This document shows, piece by piece, positions 418 to 8,733 of a stretch of DNA of 8,733 nucleotides. Position 1 is the stretch's first letter; each line of letters starts with the position of its first letter. The position numbers were made by a program, and so were the translations under genes. This stretch comes from an uncultured Deferribacteres bacterium (GTDB taxonomy: Bacteria; Zhuqueibacterota; Zhuqueibacteria; Zhuqueibacterales; Geothermadaptataceae). The notes beneath the pieces are model-generated. The model was not told the origin of the DNA. It ran no database searches and was given only the letters and a program-made list of their open reading frames with translations. Location: positions 1-8,733 of the forward strand of contig CAXHAT010000266.1 of the NCBI GenBank assembly GCA_964014485.1, read 5' to 3'.

Positions 418-2361
418 ATGGCAAAACGCAAACAAAGTCAACCTGCAAAACCTGATAACGAAAACCCGCGCTCGAATGATCCGATAGAGCAAAAGGGCAA
501 AAAACGCGGATCGAAACCGCCTAAGGGGGCGCCGCCTCCAGGGCAAACTTTTGGAGGCGCAACCATGCCAGACCCAATCGTTTTTATTGATTTGAAGGAA
601 AACGACGCTCGCGCGCGGCAGCGTCTCGAAAACCGAAGGTTCGAGCTCGAGCGCCAAAAAGAAGAGCTCGGCGGAACGCTGCCGCCGCCTTTGCAGGCGG
701 AGCTGGACGATATCGTCGATTTGCTCGATAATCAAAAAATACCTGAACGGGACGACTTGTCCGCCGTTGTGGATCCCATGTTCACGGCGATTCGCGACAA
801 ACTGGGAGAAATTTGTCCGCCGCCGGTTGGCGACCATTACCAAGGGAAGCTGCCAAGTCAGTATCCGCCACCACCACCTATAAGTGTCCCGGTTACTACG
901 TCTGAAGCAACCTATAGCAATATTGGCGGACCGATTTTGACCGAGCCGGAAAAAACGCTGGCGGCGATCTACGGTTTGATGGAGCAGGATAATCTGACAA
1001 ATCCTAAGCTGTCTCGTTTTGTCCCGGCGATTTCGATTGCCATGGGCGAATACACAGCGAATGAAGCGCTTTTCGATGCTGTTTTAAACATAGTTATTCA
1101 GGAATCGCTCGTCGCGATTCCGTCTTCGGCAATGTCACTAGGTACCGTCGGCCCTCAGGGACAAGTCTCGATGCCTGAATATCACGTTCGGGCGGATCGT
1201 TGGGTTGGCGTGGCGCGTATCTTGCGTTCCCAAGGCGTCACGGTAAATGACCCGCTGCTCGCCTTGAAAACGCGCCAAGCGCTGGCCGGTCTGGACGGAA
1301 GCGGCTCCGGCGACGTTTCATCGGCGCTCGATATTCAGTTGCCCAATCTGGAAGAACACGCCGACGTTGAAATAGTGGCGGACAACCTGCGCGCCATGCA
1401 AGCGCTCTACTTTTCCGCCAGTCTGGAAGAGCTCAAGGTATTTCAGGTCGTCGACAAATTGGTCGAATTGTTCCATATCGGCATGCTGCCGCTGGGACGC
1501 GGCAAGGCGGGCGATATTCTTTACAATTATTGGAAGAAAAGCGTCGACCGCTTGACCGAACTCGAACGCCGCAATCTTTATGCGCGCGCTTTCGGCTTTC
1601 CGGGCGGCGACGCAGGGCAGGGCATGCCGAACCGCGAGTTCGACAATTTGTGGCTGCGTTTCATTTCCGCCGTCTCCAATTTCGTGCGTCAGATTTACGT
1701 GGATGATCTTCTGCGCTCAAACGTTCCCGTAGCGGTGAGCCAGGAGCAGGTGCGTAAGTCCGGTCGCGATCTCGCCGCGAATCTCTCCCTGCATGGCTAC
1801 GGTGTTGCATTTTTCGCCGCAGCGGAATTGCAGAAGCAGCTCAACGAAATCATCACACTGCTTTCCGACGACGAAGTTAAAACAGCTTACGGCGCTCGCG
1901 ACATGTGGCAGGTCGTCGATCAAGTGGCGGCGATGGAATTGGGCGGCGCCAGAAACAGCATCCGCTATCGCACGATGGCCAATGCCGGGGCGATTATCGT
2001 TCGCTGGTTGGAGAAAAAAGCCAACGTTTTGGCCGGTGCTTCCTTGGTCGACGTCATCGATCTGCGTCAGGTGCGCAACCCGATTTCGCGTCCGGAAGGC
2101 GTCAGACCGACGGAAGACCCGACGGATTATGATCTTTTCAATGCTTGCGAACAGTGGCTCGCGGTTAACGGCATCCCGGATCAGGAAGTCGAACAATATT
2201 CTCAGCCGACTGAATCGCCGTTGATTACTTCGCGCCCGATCCAGATTCCGGCAATGGCGCGCGACATGCTCGAAGGCGTCGGCATTCAGGCCGGAACCGG
2301 AAACGGCGGCTACAATAACCGAAACATGGAGACGCATCATGAACGAAAAGCCTATGTCTGA
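418..2361 (+). CDS. Hypothetical protein A1 (647 aa): Lys/Pro-rich disordered N-terminus, Pro-rich linker and a C-terminal predicted all-helical domain paralogous to A2
   Basis: Long ORF after an AT-rich leader (AAAGAGAAA at 404-412). The region from about 1330 to 2170 aligns with A2 (LRA..Y...LE, W....DR.T..ERR.....FG, LAANL, FAA, GA...W..V, G.....WL). Alternative in-frame start at ATG 565 with GGAGG at 553-557. No obvious signal peptide or transmembrane helix. Confidence 0.9.
   Translation: MAKRKQSQPAKPDNENPRSNDPIEQKGKKRGSKPPKGAPPPGQTFGGATMPDPIVFIDLKENDARARQRLENRRFELERQKEELGGTLPPPLQAELDDIVDLLDNQKIPERDDLSAVVDPMFTAIRDKLGEICPPPVGDHYQGKLPSQYPPPPPISVPVTTSEATYSNIGGPILTEPEKTLAAIYGLMEQDNLTNPKLSRFVPAISIAMGEYTANEALFDAVLNIVIQESLVAIPSSAMSLGTVGPQGQVSMPEYHVRADRWVGVARILRSQGVTVNDPLLALKTRQALAGLDGSGSGDVSSALDIQLPNLEEHADVEIVADNLRAMQALYFSASLEELKVFQVVDKLVELFHIGMLPLGRGKAGDILYNYWKKSVDRLTELERRNLYARAFGFPGGDAGQGMPNREFDNLWLRFISAVSNFVRQIYVDDLLRSNVPVAVSQEQVRKSGRDLAANLSLHGYGVAFFAAAELQKQLNEIITLLSDDEVKTAYGARDMWQVVDQVAAMELGGARNSIRYRTMANAGAIIVRWLEKKANVLAGASLVDVIDLRQVRNPISRPEGVRPTEDPTDYDLFNACEQWLAVNGIPDQEVEQYSQPTESPLITSRPIQIPAMARDMLEGVGIQAGTGNGGYNNRNMETHHERKAYV
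553..567 (+). promoter_or_regulatory. Strong Shine-Dalgarno sequence and in-frame ATG inside A1 (alternative start)
   Basis: GGAGG at 553-557, a 7-nt spacer, then ATG 565 (MPDPIV...), in the same frame as 418. Confidence 0.5.
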
Positions 2362-3379
2362 CGTCGTGGCCCGTCGGCTGCAAACGGCGGCGCAGCGATT
2401 GGGTTCAGCGGATCCGCTGCCTTACGTTAAGCCGCTGATAGACCGCACTTTTTACCTGCCGCAGGGCGACAGCAAATATGCTGAAAATACGCTGACGCCC
2501 GGCGCGGCGCCGCTTGAGCCGTCTTTTTCCGAAAATGAGCCGCACGATCTGCGTTTTACCGTTGAGCCGCTGGGGCCGGAAGCGTCTCCGGTCATGCGGC
2601 GGGACGAAGCGACGCGGGAAATGCGACGCCTGGTGTCGCCGGTTTTTGGCCAGGACGCCCTGCGTTGGTTCGACGGACGCAGCGAAGAGTGGCGCGGCAT
2701 GGGGTCGCGCTCCCGATTGCGCTACGGCGCCTTTTTCGGAACATCATATGATCGCGACGGCATGCACGCCTCCAAAGTCTACTACGAAATGTCGCCGAAT
2801 CAGATCGACGCCCTGCCCCCGGCGCTGGCGAGCCTAGCGCGACAAGCGATGCAAACCCTGCCTTCGTTAGTGCCGATGTTTACAACTATTGCCTGCCGCA
2901 GAAACAGCGGCGTCCAGCGAACCACTTTCTTACAGCTCGGCCCGCTGCGTTTGGGTGATCTCAAACCCTTGCTGCAGCGCATCGGTCTGGCGCACCAACT
3001 GCCCGGCCTGATGCAGATGATGGGTTTGGCGCTCGGCGGACGCTTTGAACTGCCGCCGGAAACGGTGGTGCTGGCGCTCGGCCAAACCACCGAAGGGCCG
3101 GAACTGAAATTGGAAGTCATGTTGGGGCGCATCCCGGACTTGCCGCGGACTTTTCTTGATCTCCTCGCTCTCGGTCTGGCCGAAAAGCCAAAGGAGCTCA
3201 ATGCACTGATGAGTTGGCTGCGCGCTTTTACGCCGGAATCAAGCGAGCTGCCGGGAAGGTTTTCCGTTTTAAGCGTACGGATTACGCCGAAATCGCCGGC
3301 GCGCGTGAGTCTTTATTTACGGCCGATTGAGTTTGAAATCACTGATCGTTTTGTTGAACGCAATGGCGTTCCCGGTTAA
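2339..3379 (+). CDS. Putative ABBA (PT-barrel) aromatic prenyltransferase-like protein, DMATS/tryptophan dimethylallyltransferase-related (346 aa)
   Basis: GGAG at 2328-2331 lies 7 nt before the ATG, and the gene overlaps A1 by 23 nt. Motifs LTPGAAPLEPS (E60), LRFTVEP (R72), ALRWF, SKVYY (K146/Y148) and VSLYLRP (Y326) occur in the order of the DMATS PxExS, VRYxxEP, LxWF, KxY and terminal Tyr motifs as I recall them from FgaPT2-type enzymes. The CDS is near-certain; the family call is moderate. Confidence 0.7.
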   Translation: MNEKPMSDVVARRLQTAAQRLGSADPLPYVKPLIDRTFYLPQGDSKYAENTLTPGAAPLEPSFSENEPHDLRFTVEPLGPEASPVMRRDEATREMRRLVSPVFGQDALRWFDGRSEEWRGMGSRSRLRYGAFFGTSYDRDGMHASKVYYEMSPNQIDALPPALASLARQAMQTLPSLVPMFTTIACRRNSGVQRTTFLQLGPLRLGDLKPLLQRIGLAHQLPGLMQMMGLALGGRFELPPETVVLALGQTTEGPELKLEVMLGRIPDLPRTFLDLLALGLAEKPKELNALMSWLRAFTPESSELPGRFSVLSVRITPKSPARVSLYLRPIEFEITDRFVERNGVPG

Positions 3380-3405: not shown

Positions 3406-4716
3406 ATGAGGTCACTAACAAAAAATCGAACGGACGGCGACGCTAATGCGCTGACGCCCCGGCAGACGCTGGACGTGGCGCGCGGCAAAGTTCGCGACTT
3501 GCTGTTGAAAAGCGACGCCTTTCGCGCCTTGCCGCAAGATAAGCAGCGAGACATTGCGAAGAACACCGTCGAAGTCGTCAACTACCTTGCCGCGCCGGAG
3601 GGCGTTCCCGGCAACAAGCTGGCAACGGCGAAACAGTTCGTCGGCGCCGGGCAAAGCGACGATCCTTACGCCCTTGCTCTCGAAGATGAGCCTGGCGGGG
3701 GGCGTCGTTCGAGAAGAGACGGCGATTTTTCCGCATTGGCGGCGCGCGAGGGCGCGCAAGTGGCCGGTCTGCTTCTGGATCAGGTCAATTTTCCGGAATT
3801 TGTCAGCGGGCTGATTAACGGCGTGTTCCATTCCATTGTGCAATCATCAATGCAGCAGATGGAAGCCTATGGCCGACTGGTCGCGGACGTCGCCAAATCT
3901 CTCAACCAATTTCGCGATGAAAACGTGTCGATGAATCAAGGACGCGATCATCTCGTCGAACAGTTTTCCGATACTTTCATGCTCGACGTCGATACCGGCG
4001 ATAGTTTTGGCGGAGGGGGCGGCCCCAGAATCAGGCTGCGCGAAGACGTCGACGAAGAACAAGCATTGGCAAAAATCAACGACTTGCCTGTTGCCGGCGG
4101 CAAGTTGACCAGCCTCGATCTGGAAGACGACGAAGTGGAAGAAAAGCTGGTGCAGGCCGCGCGCACGCAATTGGCAACCAGCCGTCAGCAACTTTTGGCG
4201 ACGATGGTGATGATGGGCATCAACCGCATTATCGTGACCGAAGGACGGATTTCGGCAAAAGTAATGTACGATTTCCGTGCTCGCGATAATTTTCAGCGCA
4301 GCGCCACGAGCTTTGATTATGACAACCTGGGTACAAAGACGGTTCGTGAAGGCGAACATGAATACGAGCGCGAAGGAAGCAATTACACTTGGGAGAGAGA
4401 TGGAGACAAGTCGGAAGGCGAGTATCGAGGGCCAAGCTATTACTCAAAAGGGCAGTATAAAACAACACAGGAACCGCTGGTTAAACTCAAGAGCGCTACC
4501 GCTGAAGCGCAAGACGCGCAGTTGCAGTCCAAAGCGAGCCTTGCGGGCACCGTCGACGTGAATTTCAAAAGCGAGACCTTCCCGTTGGAAAAACTGGCCG
4601 ATTCGTTTCAGATCGCTCAAATACAGAATGCGGCGCAGCCCAAGAGGACGGCTCCGCAAGGCGGAAGCCGGGCGGCGTCAGAACCGCCAAGTTCGCCGTC
4701 AACTCCTGCTACCTAA
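3406..4716 (+). CDS. Hypothetical protein B1 (436 aa), family B paralog with helical core and long predicted beta-hairpin; possibly distantly DUF2589-like
   Basis: Starts 26 nt after the previous stop. Shares VNFPEFVSGLINGVFHSIVQSSMQQMEAYGRLVADVA, RQQLLATMVMMGINRIIVTEGRI and VDVNFKSETFPLEKL blocks with B2 and B3. Pro/Ser-rich tail. Confidence 0.9.
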   Translation: MRSLTKNRTDGDANALTPRQTLDVARGKVRDLLLKSDAFRALPQDKQRDIAKNTVEVVNYLAAPEGVPGNKLATAKQFVGAGQSDDPYALALEDEPGGGRRSRRDGDFSALAAREGAQVAGLLLDQVNFPEFVSGLINGVFHSIVQSSMQQMEAYGRLVADVAKSLNQFRDENVSMNQGRDHLVEQFSDTFMLDVDTGDSFGGGGGPRIRLREDVDEEQALAKINDLPVAGGKLTSLDLEDDEVEEKLVQAARTQLATSRQQLLATMVMMGINRIIVTEGRISAKVMYDFRARDNFQRSATSFDYDNLGTKTVREGEHEYEREGSNYTWERDGDKSEGEYRGPSYYSKGQYKTTQEPLVKLKSATAEAQDAQLQSKASLAGTVDVNFKSETFPLEKLADSFQIAQIQNAAQPKRTAPQGGSRAASEPPSSPSTPAT

Positions 4717-4741: not shown

Positions 4742-5944
4742 ATGAAAAACCAAAACGGCAAGCCGGCTGCCTGGGCGGATGATCAAACCCTGAGCGCCGT
4801 ACGTCCGGAAGTTCGTAAAATTTTGCAAGCTTCGCCAGGGTTTCAGCAGCTTTCGGAGCCGGAGAAAAAAGAGTTGGCTTCAAAAATGGTGAAGGTGGCT
4901 TCGTACATGTCCAATCCGGACGGCTTGGCGGCGCAGGAGCTTTCCCCGGAAGGCGGCGTTCTCGCCCACGCCCAGGAAGACGATCCGGTTGAAGCGACGA
5001 AAAGACGGTTGAGCCAAGCGCCGGGCGTTGTTGGAGAAGATTTCGAAGCGGGGGCGGTCAAGCAAGGCGTCAAGCAGTTTGGCGCGCTGGTGCAAAAGGT
5101 TGATTTTCCGAAATTCGTCGGCGGACTAATAGAGAATGTGTTCCAGGCGATTGTGGATTCCTCGATCAAACAGATGCGCGCTTACGGCGAGTTGCTGGCC
5201 AATGTGGCGAAAACGGTCGACCAGTTTGCGCAAGATAATATCACGGAAAATAATGCGCGCGATTGGATGGCCGAACGCTTTCCGGACGCTTTGGGCGTCG
5301 AAACGGAAGACATGGGTTTTGGATTTGCCGAAGGAGACGAGGAAGAAGCGCCTGGGCCGCAGCCCAAAATCGTAGCCACAGGAGAGGAGCCGGAAGAAGA
5401 CTTAAAGCGCATTTCGGAGGAATTGGGGCTGGAAAAACCCGTTACCGACATTTCCGATCCGAACGAAGAACTGCGTCTCGTCTTGGGAGCCCGCTTGCAG
5501 ATTGCCCGTGCGCGTCAACAGTTGCTCTCCTCGATGGTTATTTTGGGCATTAACCGCATCGTCGTTACCGACGGTCTTATTCATGCCAAAGTTGTTTTCG
5601 ACATGCGCGCCCGCGATACGGCCAGGCGTGTGGCAAAAGCTTCGATGCATGACAGAGAATCGCAATCGCACAAGATTTCGACGCGCGCCGAATACGGCAG
5701 TTGGTTGTCTCCGGTTTCCGCCAGCGTGGGGACTGAGCATGCTATGGAGCATGTCGCAACTGTTGAATCATCGGTCGATGATACGTCCGAATCGAAAGCG
5801 GAAGTGAAAGCCAAGCTCACCGGCGAAGTGCGGGTCAATTTTAAGAGCGACCACTTCCCGATGGAGAAGCTGGCTAGCCCGGAAATGATCGCCGCCATCC
5901 AAGGTAACGCCGAGCCGCCGAAGAAAATAGTCGAAGGCGCCTGA
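4742..5944 (+). CDS. Hypothetical protein B2 (400 aa), family B paralog
   Basis: AAGGA at 4728-4732 and a 25-nt gap after B1. Conserved blocks VDFPKFVGGLIENVFQAIVDSSIKQMRAYGELLANVA, RQQLLSSMVILGINRIVVTDGLI and VRVNFKSDHFPMEKL. Confidence 0.9.
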   Translation: MKNQNGKPAAWADDQTLSAVRPEVRKILQASPGFQQLSEPEKKELASKMVKVASYMSNPDGLAAQELSPEGGVLAHAQEDDPVEATKRRLSQAPGVVGEDFEAGAVKQGVKQFGALVQKVDFPKFVGGLIENVFQAIVDSSIKQMRAYGELLANVAKTVDQFAQDNITENNARDWMAERFPDALGVETEDMGFGFAEGDEEEAPGPQPKIVATGEEPEEDLKRISEELGLEKPVTDISDPNEELRLVLGARLQIARARQQLLSSMVILGINRIVVTDGLIHAKVVFDMRARDTARRVAKASMHDRESQSHKISTRAEYGSWLSPVSASVGTEHAMEHVATVESSVDDTSESKAEVKAKLTGEVRVNFKSDHFPMEKLASPEMIAAIQGNAEPPKKIVEGA

Positions 5945-6000: not shown

Positions 6001-6092
6001 ACACGCTAAAGCGTGGACTACGAACGATGACGCTCGCTTCTACCCTGAGTGTTGGGCATGCACTGTCGTTTGTAGTCCATGCTTTAGCATGT
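6001..6092. repeat. Inverted pair of GTAG-family REP elements (REPIN/BIME-like doublet)
   Basis: 6001-6027 and 6066-6092 are 27-bp inverted copies with 3 mismatches. Each reads GTAG-TC followed by a 6-bp-stem hairpin (CACGCT-TT-AGCGTG on the minus strand, CATGCT-TT-AGCATG on the plus strand). A T7 run occupies 6092-6098. Confidence 0.75.
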
Positions 6093-6133
6093 TTTTTTCA
6101 AAACCGCTGTTTTGGACAAAATTTAAAATCCAA

Positions 6134-7108
6134 ATGACAACGCCCAAGTCACAAATAAATTCCAATGACCAAACTATAGAGCAACGCCTGAGCGGCTTTT
6201 CTGAAATCGACTTTGCGTTCCGGACGGACGACCTCGACGCGGCGCTGGCGCTTGGCTGGCGAATGTTAGAAGCGTCGGAGCGGTTCGCGGGTCAGTTTGC
6301 TCTGCCGGACGTCGGCTTGCCCGAACTGCCGCCGGTTGTGGGAGGCGAGTTTGATCAGTCCCAACTGCGCGCCGTCGCGCCGTTCTACCTGGCTTCCGAA
6401 TTGGAGGCCGTTCGATTGATACCGGCGGTTGAGACGTTGGCGGGGTTGTTCATAAGCGGCGGATTGCGTGCGCAGCTTGGTTCGGCGGGATCAATGATTG
6501 GGCGGTTTTGGCGGGCGCGACGAGATCGTTTTACGAAGGAAGAGAGACGGGCGTTTTTCTCGCAGGTTTTTGGCGCCAATCACGGCCCCGTCCTGGCCGC
6601 TCGCGGCGGGCGCAACGAGAAGTTCGAAATCTTGATGATCGATTTTGCCGAAGCGCTTTATCAGTTCAGTCAATATGCTGGGTATGTCGGACGCACGCCG
6701 CCGCAAACGCACCTTTTTCTCGCTGCGAAAAAGCTTGCCGCCAATCTAACGCGGTACGGCGGCGGCGTGGTCGGCTTTGCGGCGCGCGATATTCTCGAAA
6801 CCGTCAGCAAGGCGTTGGATATTCTGAAACAGCCGACGGTGCAGCGCGCCGTCGGAGCCGTTTCCGTTTGGGACGCGGTGCGAAGAATCAATCAACGCTA
6901 TCTCGGCGAGACCGTCGAAATCGCCAACCATGTGAGACGAGCCAAATCAGGCGTGACGATGCTGGCCTGGCTGGCTGAACATTTGCCGGAGTTGGGCACG
7001 GGCAGATCGGTTGACTTTTCCTCCGAAAACAACGTCGTCTCCGCCGCGACGACCTGGCTGCAGGCGACATTGTCGATGGCTGAGCAAGCCTTCGCCCCGC
7101 AATTTTGA
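6134..7108 (+). CDS. Hypothetical protein A2 (about 324 aa), stand-alone paralog of the A1 C-terminal domain; start codon uncertain
   Basis: The ORF-track start at 6089 lies inside the REP hairpin, so ATG 6134 or a later codon is more plausible. There is a gapless alignment of about 90 aa to A1 (DVGLPELPP...ERRAFFSQVFG vs DIQLPNLEE...ERRNLYARAFG), plus LAANLTRYGGGVVGFAA vs LAANLSLHGYGVAFFAA. Confidence 0.85.
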   Translation: MTTPKSQINSNDQTIEQRLSGFSEIDFAFRTDDLDAALALGWRMLEASERFAGQFALPDVGLPELPPVVGGEFDQSQLRAVAPFYLASELEAVRLIPAVETLAGLFISGGLRAQLGSAGSMIGRFWRARRDRFTKEERRAFFSQVFGANHGPVLAARGGRNEKFEILMIDFAEALYQFSQYAGYVGRTPPQTHLFLAAKKLAANLTRYGGGVVGFAARDILETVSKALDILKQPTVQRAVGAVSVWDAVRRINQRYLGETVEIANHVRRAKSGVTMLAWLAEHLPELGTGRSVDFSSENNVVSAATTWLQATLSMAEQAFAPQF

Positions 7109-7115
7109 GGCTTTG

Positions 7116-8733
7116 ATGATGAACGATGCGGCAACAAACTCGACGTCCGTTCCGCCCGCAGGGCAACCCGAAGTCGTTCGCGATCCTCTGCCGCTTGTCC
7201 GACAAACCGTGCGTTCGCTGCTTTTGTCGAGTCCCGCTTTTCGCGAGCTTGACGATGAGCAGAAAAAGCAGATGGCCGCGGCGATGGTTAAGGTTTGCCA
7301 CGCCGCCGCCTCAATGGTTCGCGAGGAAATGCAGAGCGACGAGCAAGTCGCCGGCGCGCTTTCGGCGGAGCGGGAAAACGGAGCTTTTGCTAATGACCTC
7401 CGGGAGGACGCTCCCGCCGCGCCATTAGCGACGACCCAGGGCTTTGGCGACGCCGCGAATCGTGTTGCGGGAACGACGCGGAGCATTCTGAACGCCGTTT
7501 CTTTTCCCCGATTCGTCACCGAACTCATCAACGGCGTTTTTAAGGCCATTGTCGATTCCAGCCAGCAGCAAATGCACGGTTATGTTGAGTTATTGAATAA
7601 CGTTGCCGCTTCGCTAGACGGATTTGCCGGCGCCAATTACGGCCCGGATCGCGCGCGCCAATGGCTGGCGGAACGCTACCCCGGCTCATTCGAAATCATC
7701 GGTGAAGTTTTAGAAGGCGGTTCAAGGAAAGATCCAAACGACGATTGGGAGACTGACGAGGATGAGAGCGGGGGAGAATTGACTTTAAGATTAAGGCCGG
7801 GCGCCTCTCCTCCTCCGCCGGAAACTCTGCGGGTGGATTTGGGTTTGGGACAAAACGAAACAATCCCCACGGGCGATCCTGAGAGAACACTGGTTCCCTT
7901 GGTTAGGCGCGCATTGGCGCGGCAACGTCAGCAAATGTTGGCAACGATGGTGATGATGGGCATGCAGCGTATTGTCATTGACGCCGGACGCATTACCGCT
8001 TCGATGCGGTTTCACATCGATACGCGCAGCGCTCTCAACGAAGACAAGGCCAGTCGGTTCGATTTTCAACATCAATCCAGCGGTGCAGCGAGTTATGGCG
8101 GCGGGCCTTGGGGGGTAAGCGCTTCGATGACAAATACAATCGGCTATGTCAACACACAGCGAACGCAAACCACTGAGGAGTTGAACACAGAACTCGATTT
8201 GAATTCGTCGGTGGAGTTGAATTTCCGGACGGATTACTTGCCGCTAGACCGCATGACCGGCGATGATCGCGCCAAACTCATCCGGGCGAACTCTCTCAAT
8301 CCGGAAACGGAAGCCCGCCTCGCTTCGGAGGCGGCGAGAGAACGTCAGTCGAGACGAGACAATGCCGCAACGCGTGAAGCCTCCAGAAGAACCCAAATCG
8401 ATACTGATACCAGACCCCGCCAAACGCCGCGAGCCACTCCAGGGGCTCCCGGAACTGTTGAACACGCTGAACGGGCGCGGCGGGAAGCGCAAACGCGCGA
8501 GCGACAAAGCGGTTCCGGCGGCCAACCGTCGACCGGCGGGACTGGCGGGGACCAATCGGGAAGCGCTCGTCCGTCGACCGGCGGAACTGGCGGCGGCCAA
8601 TCAGGAAGCGCTCGTCCGTCGACCGGCGGAACTGGCGGGAGCCAATCGGGAAGTGCTCGCCCGACGACCGGCGGAACTGGCGGAACTGGCGGCGGCCAAT
8701 CAGGAAGCGCTCGTCCGTCGACCGGCGGAACTG
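7116..8733 (+). CDS. Hypothetical protein B3 (more than 539 aa, 3' partial), family B paralog with an Arg/Glu-rich extension and a Gly/Ser/Thr tandem-repeat tail
   Basis: Not in the ORF track. Hand translation from ATG 7116/7119 (GAGG at 7107-7110) shows no stop to the window end: MMNDAATNSTSVPP...VRSLLLSSPAFRELDDEQKKQMAAAMVKV...VSFPRFVTELINGVFKAIVDSSQQQMHGYVELLNNVA...RQQMLATMVMMGMQRIVIDAGRI...VELNFRTDYLPLDRM. Confidence 0.92.
   Translation, partial: MMNDAATNSTSVPPAGQPEVVRDPLPLVRQTVRSLLLSSPAFRELDDEQKKQMAAAMVKVCHAAASMVREEMQSDEQVAGALSAERENGAFANDLREDAPAAPLATTQGFGDAANRVAGTTRSILNAVSFPRFVTELINGVFKAIVDSSQQQMHGYVELLNNVAASLDGFAGANYGPDRARQWLAERYPGSFEIIGEVLEGGSRKDPNDDWETDEDESGGELTLRLRPGASPPPPETLRVDLGLGQNETIPTGDPERTLVPLVRRALARQRQQMLATMVMMGMQRIVIDAGRITASMRFHIDTRSALNEDKASRFDFQHQSSGAASYGGGPWGVSASMTNTIGYVNTQRTQTTEELNTELDLNSSVELNFRTDYLPLDRMTGDDRAKLIRANSLNPETEARLASEAARERQSRRDNAATREASRRTQIDTDTRPRQTPRATPGAPGTVEHAERARREAQTRERQSGSGGQPSTGGTGGDQSGSARPSTGGTGGGQSGSARPSTGGTGGSQSGSARPTTGGTGGTGGGQSGSARPSTGGT
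8526..8733 (+). repeat. Coding tandem repeat with a 45-bp unit encoding PSTGGTGG(D/G/S)QSGSAR; at least 4.4 copies, truncated by the window end
   Basis: Units start at 8526, 8571, 8616, 8661 and 8715. The fourth unit is 54 bp because of an extra GGCGGAACT (Gly-Gly-Thr). All units are in frame with B3. Confidence 0.95.

Follow-up and report, generated by a model that had tools for sequence, protein, structure and literature searches.

A divergent PT-barrel protein related to DMATS prenyltransferases is encoded in a conserved, protease-rich gene cluster

An 8,733-nucleotide stretch of DNA from an uncultured Deferribacteres bacterium (the window, analyzed here as a whole) encodes a PT-barrel protein, PT, that is homologous to the DMATS prenyltransferases and has a conserved place in a gene cluster containing several proteases. 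Judged from its sequence, PT is probably an active, divergent prenyltransferase of the DMATS/CymD lineage. Its fixed position among proteases and unknown proteins may point to a protein or a signal molecule, and not a natural product, as the target of its lipidation.

Fold and family of PT

The window contains the following genes and signals.

418..2361, + strand: A1, 647 aa; constant upstream neighbor of PT, with a C-terminal half paralogous to A2
2328..2331, + strand: GGAG, Shine-Dalgarno-like as read from the sequence; the ATG lies 7 nt downstream
2339..3379, + strand: PT, PT-barrel (DMATS-like) protein, 346 aa; member of a family without annotation
3406..4716, + strand: B1, 436 aa; paralogue of B0, B2, and B3
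4742..5944, + strand: B2, 400 aa; helical N-terminal part and a long amphipathic beta-hairpin
6089..7108, + strand: A2, 339 aa; distantly paralogous to the A1 core
7116..8733, + strand: B3; 3' end open at the contig end

In the predicted model of PT, DSSP assigned helices 6 to 21 and 27 to 37, strands 59 to 64 and 71 to 75, helices 84 to 103 and 105 to 119, strands 131 to 138 and 141 to 150, helices 153 to 158 and 161 to 173, strands 177 to 187 and 191 to 199, helices 205 to 214 and 218 to 231, strands 243 to 250 and 253 to 261, helices 272 to 280 and 284 to 297, and strands 306 to 315 and 322 to 329, which is the secondary structure expected of the PT-barrel (ABBA) superfamily. The structural similarity of the model to solved PT-barrels was well above that to unrelated folds. 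All top matches were small-molecule DMATS enzymes, and the structural alignment to DMATS covered 321 of the 346 residues, N-terminal helices included. Moreover, hhalign aligned PT with the DMATS/CymD family over 316 columns (95.3%; E, 2.4e-8). Taken together, these data bear out the DMATS-like PT-barrel that a preliminary description had read from this DNA. The protein has no hydrophobic span, in keeping with the soluble nature of ABBA proteins, and its translation contains neither DDxxD nor NDxxD; the phenol/phenazine ABBA prenyltransferases NphB/CloQ/EpzP are likewise soluble PT-barrels without a DDxxD motif.

At the sequence level, PT shares 11 to 17% identity with the bacterial DMATS/CymD indole prenyltransferases (CymD, 6os3; 6-DMATS, 6zry; 5-DMATS, 6zrz; PriB; IptA; and TleC/MpnD). 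Unlike them, it scored below the cutoffs of PF11991 (16.3 versus 25 bits; Pfam) and TIGR03429 (12.9 versus 163.85 bits; NCBIfam). Only 5 of 52 PT family members gave even a subthreshold match to the DMATS/CymD family, and a HMMER search of the PDB with the single PT protein and two family profiles returned no prenyltransferase or DMATS match. Since the Pfam and NCBIfam scores are below their cutoffs and its homologues are all labeled hypothetical, PT represents a divergent PT-barrel family that has had no annotation so far. Clustering of this family gives at least 993 groups of sequences at 90% identity and at least 248 at 50%.

Gene cluster around PT

PT belongs to a gene cluster with the order trypsin/amidase/C70 protein (G1), B0, small Trp protein (S), Trypco2-like protein (U), S8 subtilase, A1, PT, B1, B2, A2, and B3. 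The same ten-gene order was found in every testable locus of the 80 examined, with A1 directly upstream of PT in 77 of 77 testable loci and B1 directly downstream in all 80. The overlap with A1 pointed out in the preliminary description is present in the window, where the PT start lies 23 nt inside A1, but it is not conserved, the two genes being separated by 33 nt in locus L017 and by 50 nt in L087.

G1 carries Trypsin_2, Peptidase_C70, and Amidase_2 (peptidoglycan amidase) domains. Protein S, of about 80 aa, has a conserved Trp and a W-R-W motif, located in a DLPxWRW segment, and matched no Pfam family. Trypco2 was matched weakly by 6 of 22 U proteins (best E, 1.7e-4; one recorded score of 16.7 bits, below the 24.2-bit cutoff), and the U profile had no match in the PDB. 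As for the A and B proteins, A2 aligned with A1 residues of about 300 to 540 at 24 to 30% identity (tblastn); A1 itself had no Pfam family and no usable ESM Atlas match. For B2, no known fold was found, and the ESM Atlas gave unnamed relatives only, plus a 0.78 lead to DUF2589. PADLOC matched the cluster at the protease-domain level only, PADLOC and PHROGs returned nothing for the six window proteins, and neither STAND nor other sensor NTPases were encountered in the cluster.

Neither the window nor the conserved cluster in the 80 related loci contains NRPS, PKS, P450, or terpene genes, which agrees with the initial placement of PT outside a small-molecule biosynthetic context. PT was always located within the A1-PT-B1 cluster and never in a metabolite gene cluster, whereas true DMATS loci that we compared have P450 and flavin-monooxygenase-like genes as neighbors. 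An ordinary natural-product DMATS lying beside unrelated genes by chance would share the DMATS-like fold and residues of PT; however, this explanation is already contradicted by the synteny, which extends over at least 8 phyla among the 80 loci. Given also the missing biosynthetic neighbors and the low family scores, we consider it highly improbable.

Putative active site

Residue conservation was counted in a 52-member PT family alignment, in which identity reaches down to 22%, and DMATS residues, numbered as in 6ZRZ-type DMATS, were assigned by profile alignment to PT. The codons concerned are listed below.

2516..2554, + strand: E60 (2516-2518) and R72 (2552-2554), strands 1 and 2; putative catalytic Glu and first diphosphate-binding Arg
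2774..2788, + strand: K146-V-Y148-Y-E150, strand 4; K-x-Y diphosphate motif and family-specific E150
2912..2926, + strand: V192-Q-R194-T-T196, strand 6; altered R-x-K-x-Y motif
3101..3115, + strand: E255-L-K257-L-E259, strand 8; charged triad specific to the PT family
3302..3325, + strand: R322-V-S-L-Y326-L-R328-P, strand 10; last diphosphate Arg and retained Tyr

E60 aligns with the invariant E76 of DMATS and is kept in 49 of the 52 members, and R72 aligns with R90 (44/52). K146 and Y148 correspond to K160 and Y162 (36/52 and 42/52, respectively; E150, 40/52), while R322 and Y326 correspond to R347 and Y351 (30/52 and 46/52). Residues singled out at first sight (E60, R72, K146/Y148, and, within the terminal SLYLRP, Y326) are among these. 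The two middle motifs described as degenerate (QRTTF and LKLEV) are indeed altered. V192-x-R194-x-T196 aligns with R213-x-K215-x-Y217, so that the first Arg of R-x-K-x-Y is lost (R213 to V192), and Lys is replaced by Arg at R194, which is kept in 43/52 members. Hence, three members of the DMATS diphosphate-anchoring set are identical in PT (R72, K146, and R322), one is substituted conservatively, and one is gone. The tyrosine shield of the window PT is reduced to Y148 and Y326, with Y217 replaced by T196, H/Y283 by E259, Y335 by V310, and Y357 by F332; of the three TleC-type shield tyrosines, one is left. Position 196 is Tyr in 36/52 and Thr in 10/52 members. Compared with bacterial DMATS, the putative lumen also has additional conserved Glu, Lys, and Arg residues. 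In the strand 8 triad, E255 is kept in 44/52, K/R257 in 50/52, and E/D259 in 49/52 members; among 30 close homologues, the prevailing residue pairs at 257/259 are K/E (16 K and 16 E) and E/Y (14 E and 13 Y). The alignment to DMATS suggests that these side chains face the lumen. Of 13 lumen positions with a DMATS equivalent, 10 rank in the top 70 of the 346 columns for conservation.

These changes might indicate a noncatalytic barrel that acts either as a sensor or sink for a prenyl diphosphate (or for a different anionic lipid) or as a structural subunit bound to A1 or B1. An undecaprenyl-diphosphate-linked wall precursor would be an example of such a ligand, as G1 contains a peptidoglycan amidase domain. 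The loss of one basic residue and of most of the tyrosine shield, the subthreshold family scores, the overlap with A1 in the window, and the constant flanking by A1 and B1 are in line with this idea. On the other hand, the putative catalytic Glu is retained in 49 of 52 members, the other basic and Tyr positions rank with the most strongly conserved columns, Tyr is the common residue at position 196 and occupies position 259 in 13 of 30 close homologues, and the A1 overlap varies between loci. Because the Glu remains, as do four of the five basic positions (one of them, R194, as Lys to Arg), a dead enzyme appears less likely than a retuned one. The pseudoenzyme option raised at the outset is weakened accordingly, and we regard a noncatalytic barrel as rather unlikely.

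Possible acceptors

Cyanobactin F-family peptide prenyltransferases (PagF, 5tty; PatF, 4bg2; and DciF, 9lwv) share the PT-barrel fold with PT and act on side chains of ribosomal peptides. Cyanobactin pathways also include subtilisin-like proteases. Based on the gene context, we tentatively favor a protein or peptide encoded in the cluster as the acceptor of PT. The complete reading, in which an active PT prenylates such an acceptor within a protease-rich cluster of cytoplasmic proteins, is plausible though still short of an even chance. In this mechanism, four basic residues (R72, K146, R194, and R322) and two tyrosines (Y148 and Y326) would keep a prenyl diphosphate in place within the barrel, where its ionization would generate an allylic cation. 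The acceptor would be a protein or peptide of the cluster, and E60 would hold an N-H or O-H group of the accepting side chain or remove its proton. The conserved Trp of protein S, in its W-R-W motif, is one candidate, and a B paralogue with a long amphipathic beta-hairpin is another. The lipid may then confer membrane affinity on the acceptor as part of a conflict or lysis system that is directed at membranes and controlled by proteolysis. More speculatively, and with a low probability, PT could attach a lipid to S or the B paralogues, at Trp or a different side chain, and thereby license membrane insertion in a sigma-54-controlled, protease-gated envelope-attack or abortive-defense system, with a sister branch serving TcA-type toxin loci.

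Alternatively, PT could be an active PT-barrel enzyme with a small-molecule acceptor, which might be a free amino acid (for instance Trp), a nucleotide, a nucleobase, or some other metabolite, and whose product is a signal, a cofactor, or a toxic compound. The extensive structural match to small-molecule DMATS and the retained Glu, which hydrogen bonds the indole N-H, point in this direction, and the extra conserved lumen charges (E150, E255, K257, E259, and R314) would suit a polar or zwitterionic acceptor. In addition, the gene after PT in a distant branch encodes a Pol-beta nucleotidyltransferase/methyltransferase, a small-molecule or nucleic acid enzyme. Nevertheless, we recognized no further gene in the cluster for the metabolism, transport, or reception of such a product, and strict adjacency to nonenzymatic A/B proteins at every locus is unusual for a stand-alone metabolite enzyme. 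We consider a small-molecule acceptor only slightly less likely than one encoded in the cluster.

If PT is active, the acceptors of ABBA prenyltransferases would include a new class, possibly proteins, and the mass shift would provide a biochemical handle on a widespread cluster of completely unknown function; PT is also a candidate new biocatalyst. If it lipidates proteins, it would be the first PT-barrel to act on folded proteins outside secondary metabolism, and bacteria would have their own version of lipid-gated pore formation. PT-barrel enzymes are described as confined to secondary metabolism in the accessible portion of one account (PMC3227686). Our search of the literature on PT-barrels or prenyltransferases with subtilases, protein prenylation, defense, or Tc toxins found no PT-barrel in a protease-rich, nonbiosynthetic cluster, and that on the cluster and on DUF3467 found nothing relevant. 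The review PMC7839719 likewise contained none of the terms sought.

Related systems and distribution

The cluster resembles Pepco (Trypco1/2), EACC1, and bacterial gasdermin defense modules, in which trypsin-like, cysteine, or subtilisin proteases also lie beside small or pore-former-like proteins of unknown enzymology. Pepco-associated proteases can bear peptidoglycan-binding domains, according to the available part of a preprint (bioRxiv 10.1101/2025.11.14.688446). In contrast to Pepco-type modules, the cluster is far larger and its Trypco2 matches are subthreshold; none of these modules is reported with a PT-barrel, and the word "prenyl" does not occur in that part of the preprint.

The cluster has probably spread horizontally. 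Its occurrence across many phyla is patchy and includes Acidobacteriota, Bacteroidota, Cyanobacteria, Chloroflexota, Actinomycetota, and Pseudomonadota. No PF11991 match was found in the genome of the window or in 20 relatives, and phage and viral contigs yielded no match. Metagenomes were queried with a 5-member PT alignment; among the matching sequencing runs listed, none was an RNA run. Two putative PT fusions were discarded: a 1041-aa record, the only longer match, looks like a run-on through PT, B1, and B2 caused by frameshifting, and a 597-aa record was unconvincing, with a hydrophobic, unrelated C-terminal extension. A plasmid search gave a single match, an 880-kb replicon of Burkholderia pyrrocinia, and the distant PT branch adjoins TcA-like toxin genes. 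Finally, the tail of B3 consists of a Gly/Ser/Thr-rich tandem repeat (8526-8733; unit of 45 nt, or 15 aa; 4.4 copies) that continues past the contig end.

The protein has a PT-barrel fold and shares ancestry with DMATS

The preliminary description took the 346-residue product of the gene at 2339 to 3379, here called PT, for a DMATS-like PT-barrel protein. Domain libraries support this weakly: Pfam Trp_DMAT matched residues 50 to 118 only (E value of 0.0065; 16.3 bits, cut-off 25), NCBIfam DMATS gave an E value of 0.049, and no prenyltransferase was retrieved from PDB sequences with PT alone or two family profiles as queries. To settle the fold we relied on an AlphaFold2 model, calculated with 30 homologues as input (pLDDT 88.7, pTM 0.87). 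Checked for whether it is a PT-barrel at all, the model shows that architecture, with exactly five repeats of helix-helix-strand-strand. Foldseek returned 123 PDB matches at E ≤ 1e-3, and the rows listed were all PT-barrel prenyltransferases, headed by CymD, PriB, DMATS1, IptA, and FgaPT2 (best E value, 9.7e-13; TM, 0.61 to 0.74; identity, 11 to 17%); the chain next after the PT-barrel structures in the model comparison was unrelated and scored 7.3. Furthermore, Trp_DMAT genes proper were taken from genomes of actinomycetes and Bradyrhizobium, one of them being the orthologue of the solved 5-DMATS 6ZRZ; 24 of these were aligned and compared profile to profile with 52 PT-family members, giving 95.3% probability and an E value of 2.4e-8 over 316 columns. 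Together, the model, the Foldseek matches, and the profile comparison bear out the DMATS-like assignment and establish, as far as computation can go, that PT has the PT-barrel fold and a common ancestry with DMATS.

Conservation of the predicted active site

Residues were mapped by hhalign against the 6ZRZ-type DMATS, and every PT residue quoted in the preliminary description was found at its position. Six PT/DMATS pairs are identical: E60/E76, R72/R90, K146/K160, Y148/Y162, R322/R347, and Y326/Y351. In the middle motifs, previously described as appearing degenerate, V192 and T196 stand for the lost R213 and Y217, K257 and E259 replace T281 and H283 (the latter being Tyr in the 6ZRZ chain), and R194 is a conservative change from K215. 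In addition, Y335 is lost (V310 in PT), and F332 lacks the hydroxyl of Y357. TleC is described as having the catalytic residue Glu106, the diphosphate anchors Arg119, Lys187, Arg248, and Arg378, and a "tyrosine shield" of Tyr252, Tyr317, and Tyr382 (accessible text of PMC4786772). Judged from spacing, Glu106 would correspond to E60, the anchors to R72, K146, V192 (R194 follows two positions later), and R322, while T196, E259, and Y326 would match the shield. Conservation was counted in 52 diverse family members, with identity down to 22%.

Conservation of mapped positions in the PT family (members of 52)
E60, kept in 49/52
R72, kept in 44/52
K146, kept in 36/52
Y148, kept in 42/52
R194, kept in 43/52
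Position 196, Tyr in 36/52, Thr in 10/52
K/R257, kept in 50/52
E/D259, kept in 49/52
R314, kept in 41/52
R322, kept in 30/52
Y326, kept in 46/52

Ten of the 13 mapped positions rank in the top 70 of the 346 alignment columns by conservation (hypergeometric P of ~1e-5, a rough value since the sequences are related and the positions were picked from the DMATS alignment). On the residue map and these counts, the predicted donor site of this DMATS homologue looks largely intact, most putative donor-binding residues being retained, and the cation-shielding and acceptor side looks remodelled and unusually charged (E150, E255, K257, E259, R314, and R328). A noncatalytic protein with a binding or scaffolding role seems improbable; we infer that PT is probably an active prenyltransferase, and its acceptor may belong to the gene cluster around it. 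Positions 257 and 259 (codons within window 3107 to 3115) vary among 30 close homologues: 257 carries K in 16 members and E in 14, and 259 carries E in 16, Y in 13, and H in one. In the alignment K mostly pairs with E, and E with Y, a pattern resembling a coupled exchange along a single face of strand 8.

PT lies in an invariant cluster with proteases

Six open reading frames occupy the + strand of the window, a complete contig of 8,733 bp. A and B denote two paralogue sets of unnamed families.

Genes in the window
418 to 2361, + strand, A1
2339 to 3379, + strand, PT
3406 to 4716, + strand, B1
4742 to 5944, + strand, B2
6089 to 7108, + strand, A2
7116 to contig end, + strand, B3

PT starts with ATG, preceded by GGAG at 2328 to 2331, and overlaps A1, as had been claimed, by 23 nt. 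The 3' end of B3 (8526 to 8733) is a 45-nt tandem repeat of 4.4 copies with 83% matches, coding for a 15-residue unit rich in Gly, Ser, and Thr; the contig stops within this repeat, the probable cause of the break in the assembly. G+C content is 0.46 over the first 500 bases, versus 0.52 to 0.62 elsewhere, and no remnant of the subtilase gene S8 was found there (1 to 417 lie upstream of A1).

To define the cluster, loci were scanned with one genome per species; 154 relatives were returned, and the best 80 loci were used. These span Cytophagia, Acidobacteriota, Gaiellaceae, Chloroflexia, Anaerolineae, Chthonomonadales, Cyanobacteria, and Alpha-, Beta-, and Gammaproteobacteria. All loci have one strand and one order: G1, B0, (S), U, S8, A1, PT, B1, B2, A2, B3. 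G1 combines Trypsin_2, Amidase_2 (N-acetylmuramoyl-L-alanine amidase), and Peptidase_C70 domains, S8 is a subtilase by domain match, and U gave sub-threshold Trypco2 matches in 6 of 22 proteins.

Neighbours of PT (loci with the gene/loci with enough flank, best 80 of 154 relatives)
G1, 51/52
B0, 53/53
U, 55/55
S8, 61/61
A1, directly upstream of PT, 77/77
B1, directly downstream of PT, 80/80
B2, 67/67
B3, 52/53

In the one locus scored without B3, the final gene had been classed with the B2 paralogue, and no conserved gene lies beyond B3. In the window's own genome, B0, S, U, and S8 lie at the end of another contig (G000:C99:170-2706); thus, the cluster is complete there and split by assembly. 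PT is the protein best conserved across phyla (its identity to the copy in Pseudoxanthomonas has a median of 57%, versus 25 to 56% for other cluster proteins). A simple hydropathy scan of six window and ten L017 cluster proteins found no membrane span or signal peptide. PT keeps invariant synteny with proteases and proteins of no known family, and metabolite-pathway genes are absent, in agreement with the earlier view that it stands outside a small-molecule biosynthetic context.

Where the flank extends far enough, the stretch upstream of G1 repeatedly encodes a sigma-54-dependent activator together with a DUF3467 protein, namely in Burkholderia, two Acidobacteriota, and one Bryobacteraceae (L087:5057-6588 on the Burkholderia pyrrocinia replicon; also upstream in L003, L004, and L067). 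In B. pyrrocinia, PGAP names the amidase and the S8 peptidase and calls every other cluster gene hypothetical. Pycsar-type cyclase-like and patatin-like phospholipase effector-like genes follow that cluster (L087:22570-27167).

A large, patchy, and divergent family

A word-indexed search found at least 993 PT relatives at E ≤ 1e-3 (8,000 candidates scored). The best 120 share 60 to 72% identity, the window's own entry aside; no precomputed Pfam domain is listed for any of them, and the names given are "hypothetical protein" without exception. An exhaustive profile search yielded 248 family clusters (50% identity) at E ≤ 1e-3 and 89 at E ≤ 1e-30. No convincing fused form was found among PT relatives. 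The distribution is patchy: of 167 genomes from the window's phylum, 3 gave a match, its own counted, and of the 9 others in its taxonomic family none did. A sample of 401 Actinomycetota genomes yielded the seed genome itself and a single marginal match (E value of 5e-4). Phage records and viral contigs gave no match, and one plasmid or chromid, that of B. pyrrocinia, carries the family. High cross-phylum identity combined with sporadic occurrence points to an accessory system that has spread horizontally. A Bradyrhizobium genome with the cluster (L060) also encodes, on another contig, a 562-residue open reading frame scoring 50.4 bits with Trp_DMAT, above the cut-off (L082:1309-2997), so a canonical-type DMATS and the PT family coexist in one genome.

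Distant members, ~27% identical to PT, keep the signature E / R / KxY / RxY / KxE / Y. In all four recovered metagenome loci (L093:5326-6336, L094:8001-8948, L095:7968-9023, and L096:871-1521), the gene directly follows a TcA-like gene (ABC_toxin_N, Neuraminidase-like, and TcA_TcB_BD domains) and precedes a gene with Pol-beta nucleotidyltransferase/methyltransferase domains; no A, B, U, or S8 proteins were found at these four. A 2011 analysis, in its accessible portion, confined PT-barrels to aromatic prenyltransferases of secondary metabolism (PMC3227686), and PDB titles add peptide-acting cyanobactin enzymes. In the openly searchable literature, no account turned up of a PT-barrel within a nonbiosynthetic cluster rich in proteases or beside Tc-type genes. 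We class the PT family as a new, divergent family within the PT-barrel superfamily, in a setting that is also new.

Possible acceptors and role of the cluster

S, a conserved protein of ~80 residues encoded between B0 and U, was detected by tblastn in 13 loci and matched no Pfam family. Copies lie at L004:5691-5933, L003:5566-5808, L087:11515-11778, and, in the window's own genome, L097:2325-2558 on the − strand. Its motif is of the DLPxWRW type, with Trp shortly after DLP/DVP in 13 of 14 sequences examined, the Burkholderia copy lacking it. S is a candidate prenyl acceptor. A protein or peptide acceptor is the leading, though tentative, reading, suggested by a cluster without other biosynthetic enzymes, by the Trp of S, and by the protein weapons adjoining both family branches; the pairing of a PT-barrel with a subtilase also recalls peptide-modifying pathways. 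The nearest structures to PT all act on small molecules, and its lumen appears polar (orientation taken from the DMATS alignment rather than coordinates), which favors a small-molecule acceptor, a reading nearly as likely as the first.

As for the whole cluster, Pepco/Trypco proteins are described as pore formers that proteases activate, and these proteases can bear peptidoglycan-binding domains (bioRxiv 10.1101/2025.11.14.688446, accessible text). This precedent, the weak Trypco2 matches of U, PADLOC matches at the domain level, and the cluster distribution tentatively suggest a protease-gated conflict or lysis system.

B0 to B3 are mutually paralogous and have a long beta-hairpin in common. 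A model of B2 (pLDDT 72), which matched no solved fold, has a helical N-terminal part and a hairpin of two strands of ~25 residues each (270 to 294 and 349 to 372) with a disordered tip; its arms show a strict hydrophobic/polar alternation that is conserved in 60 paralogues.
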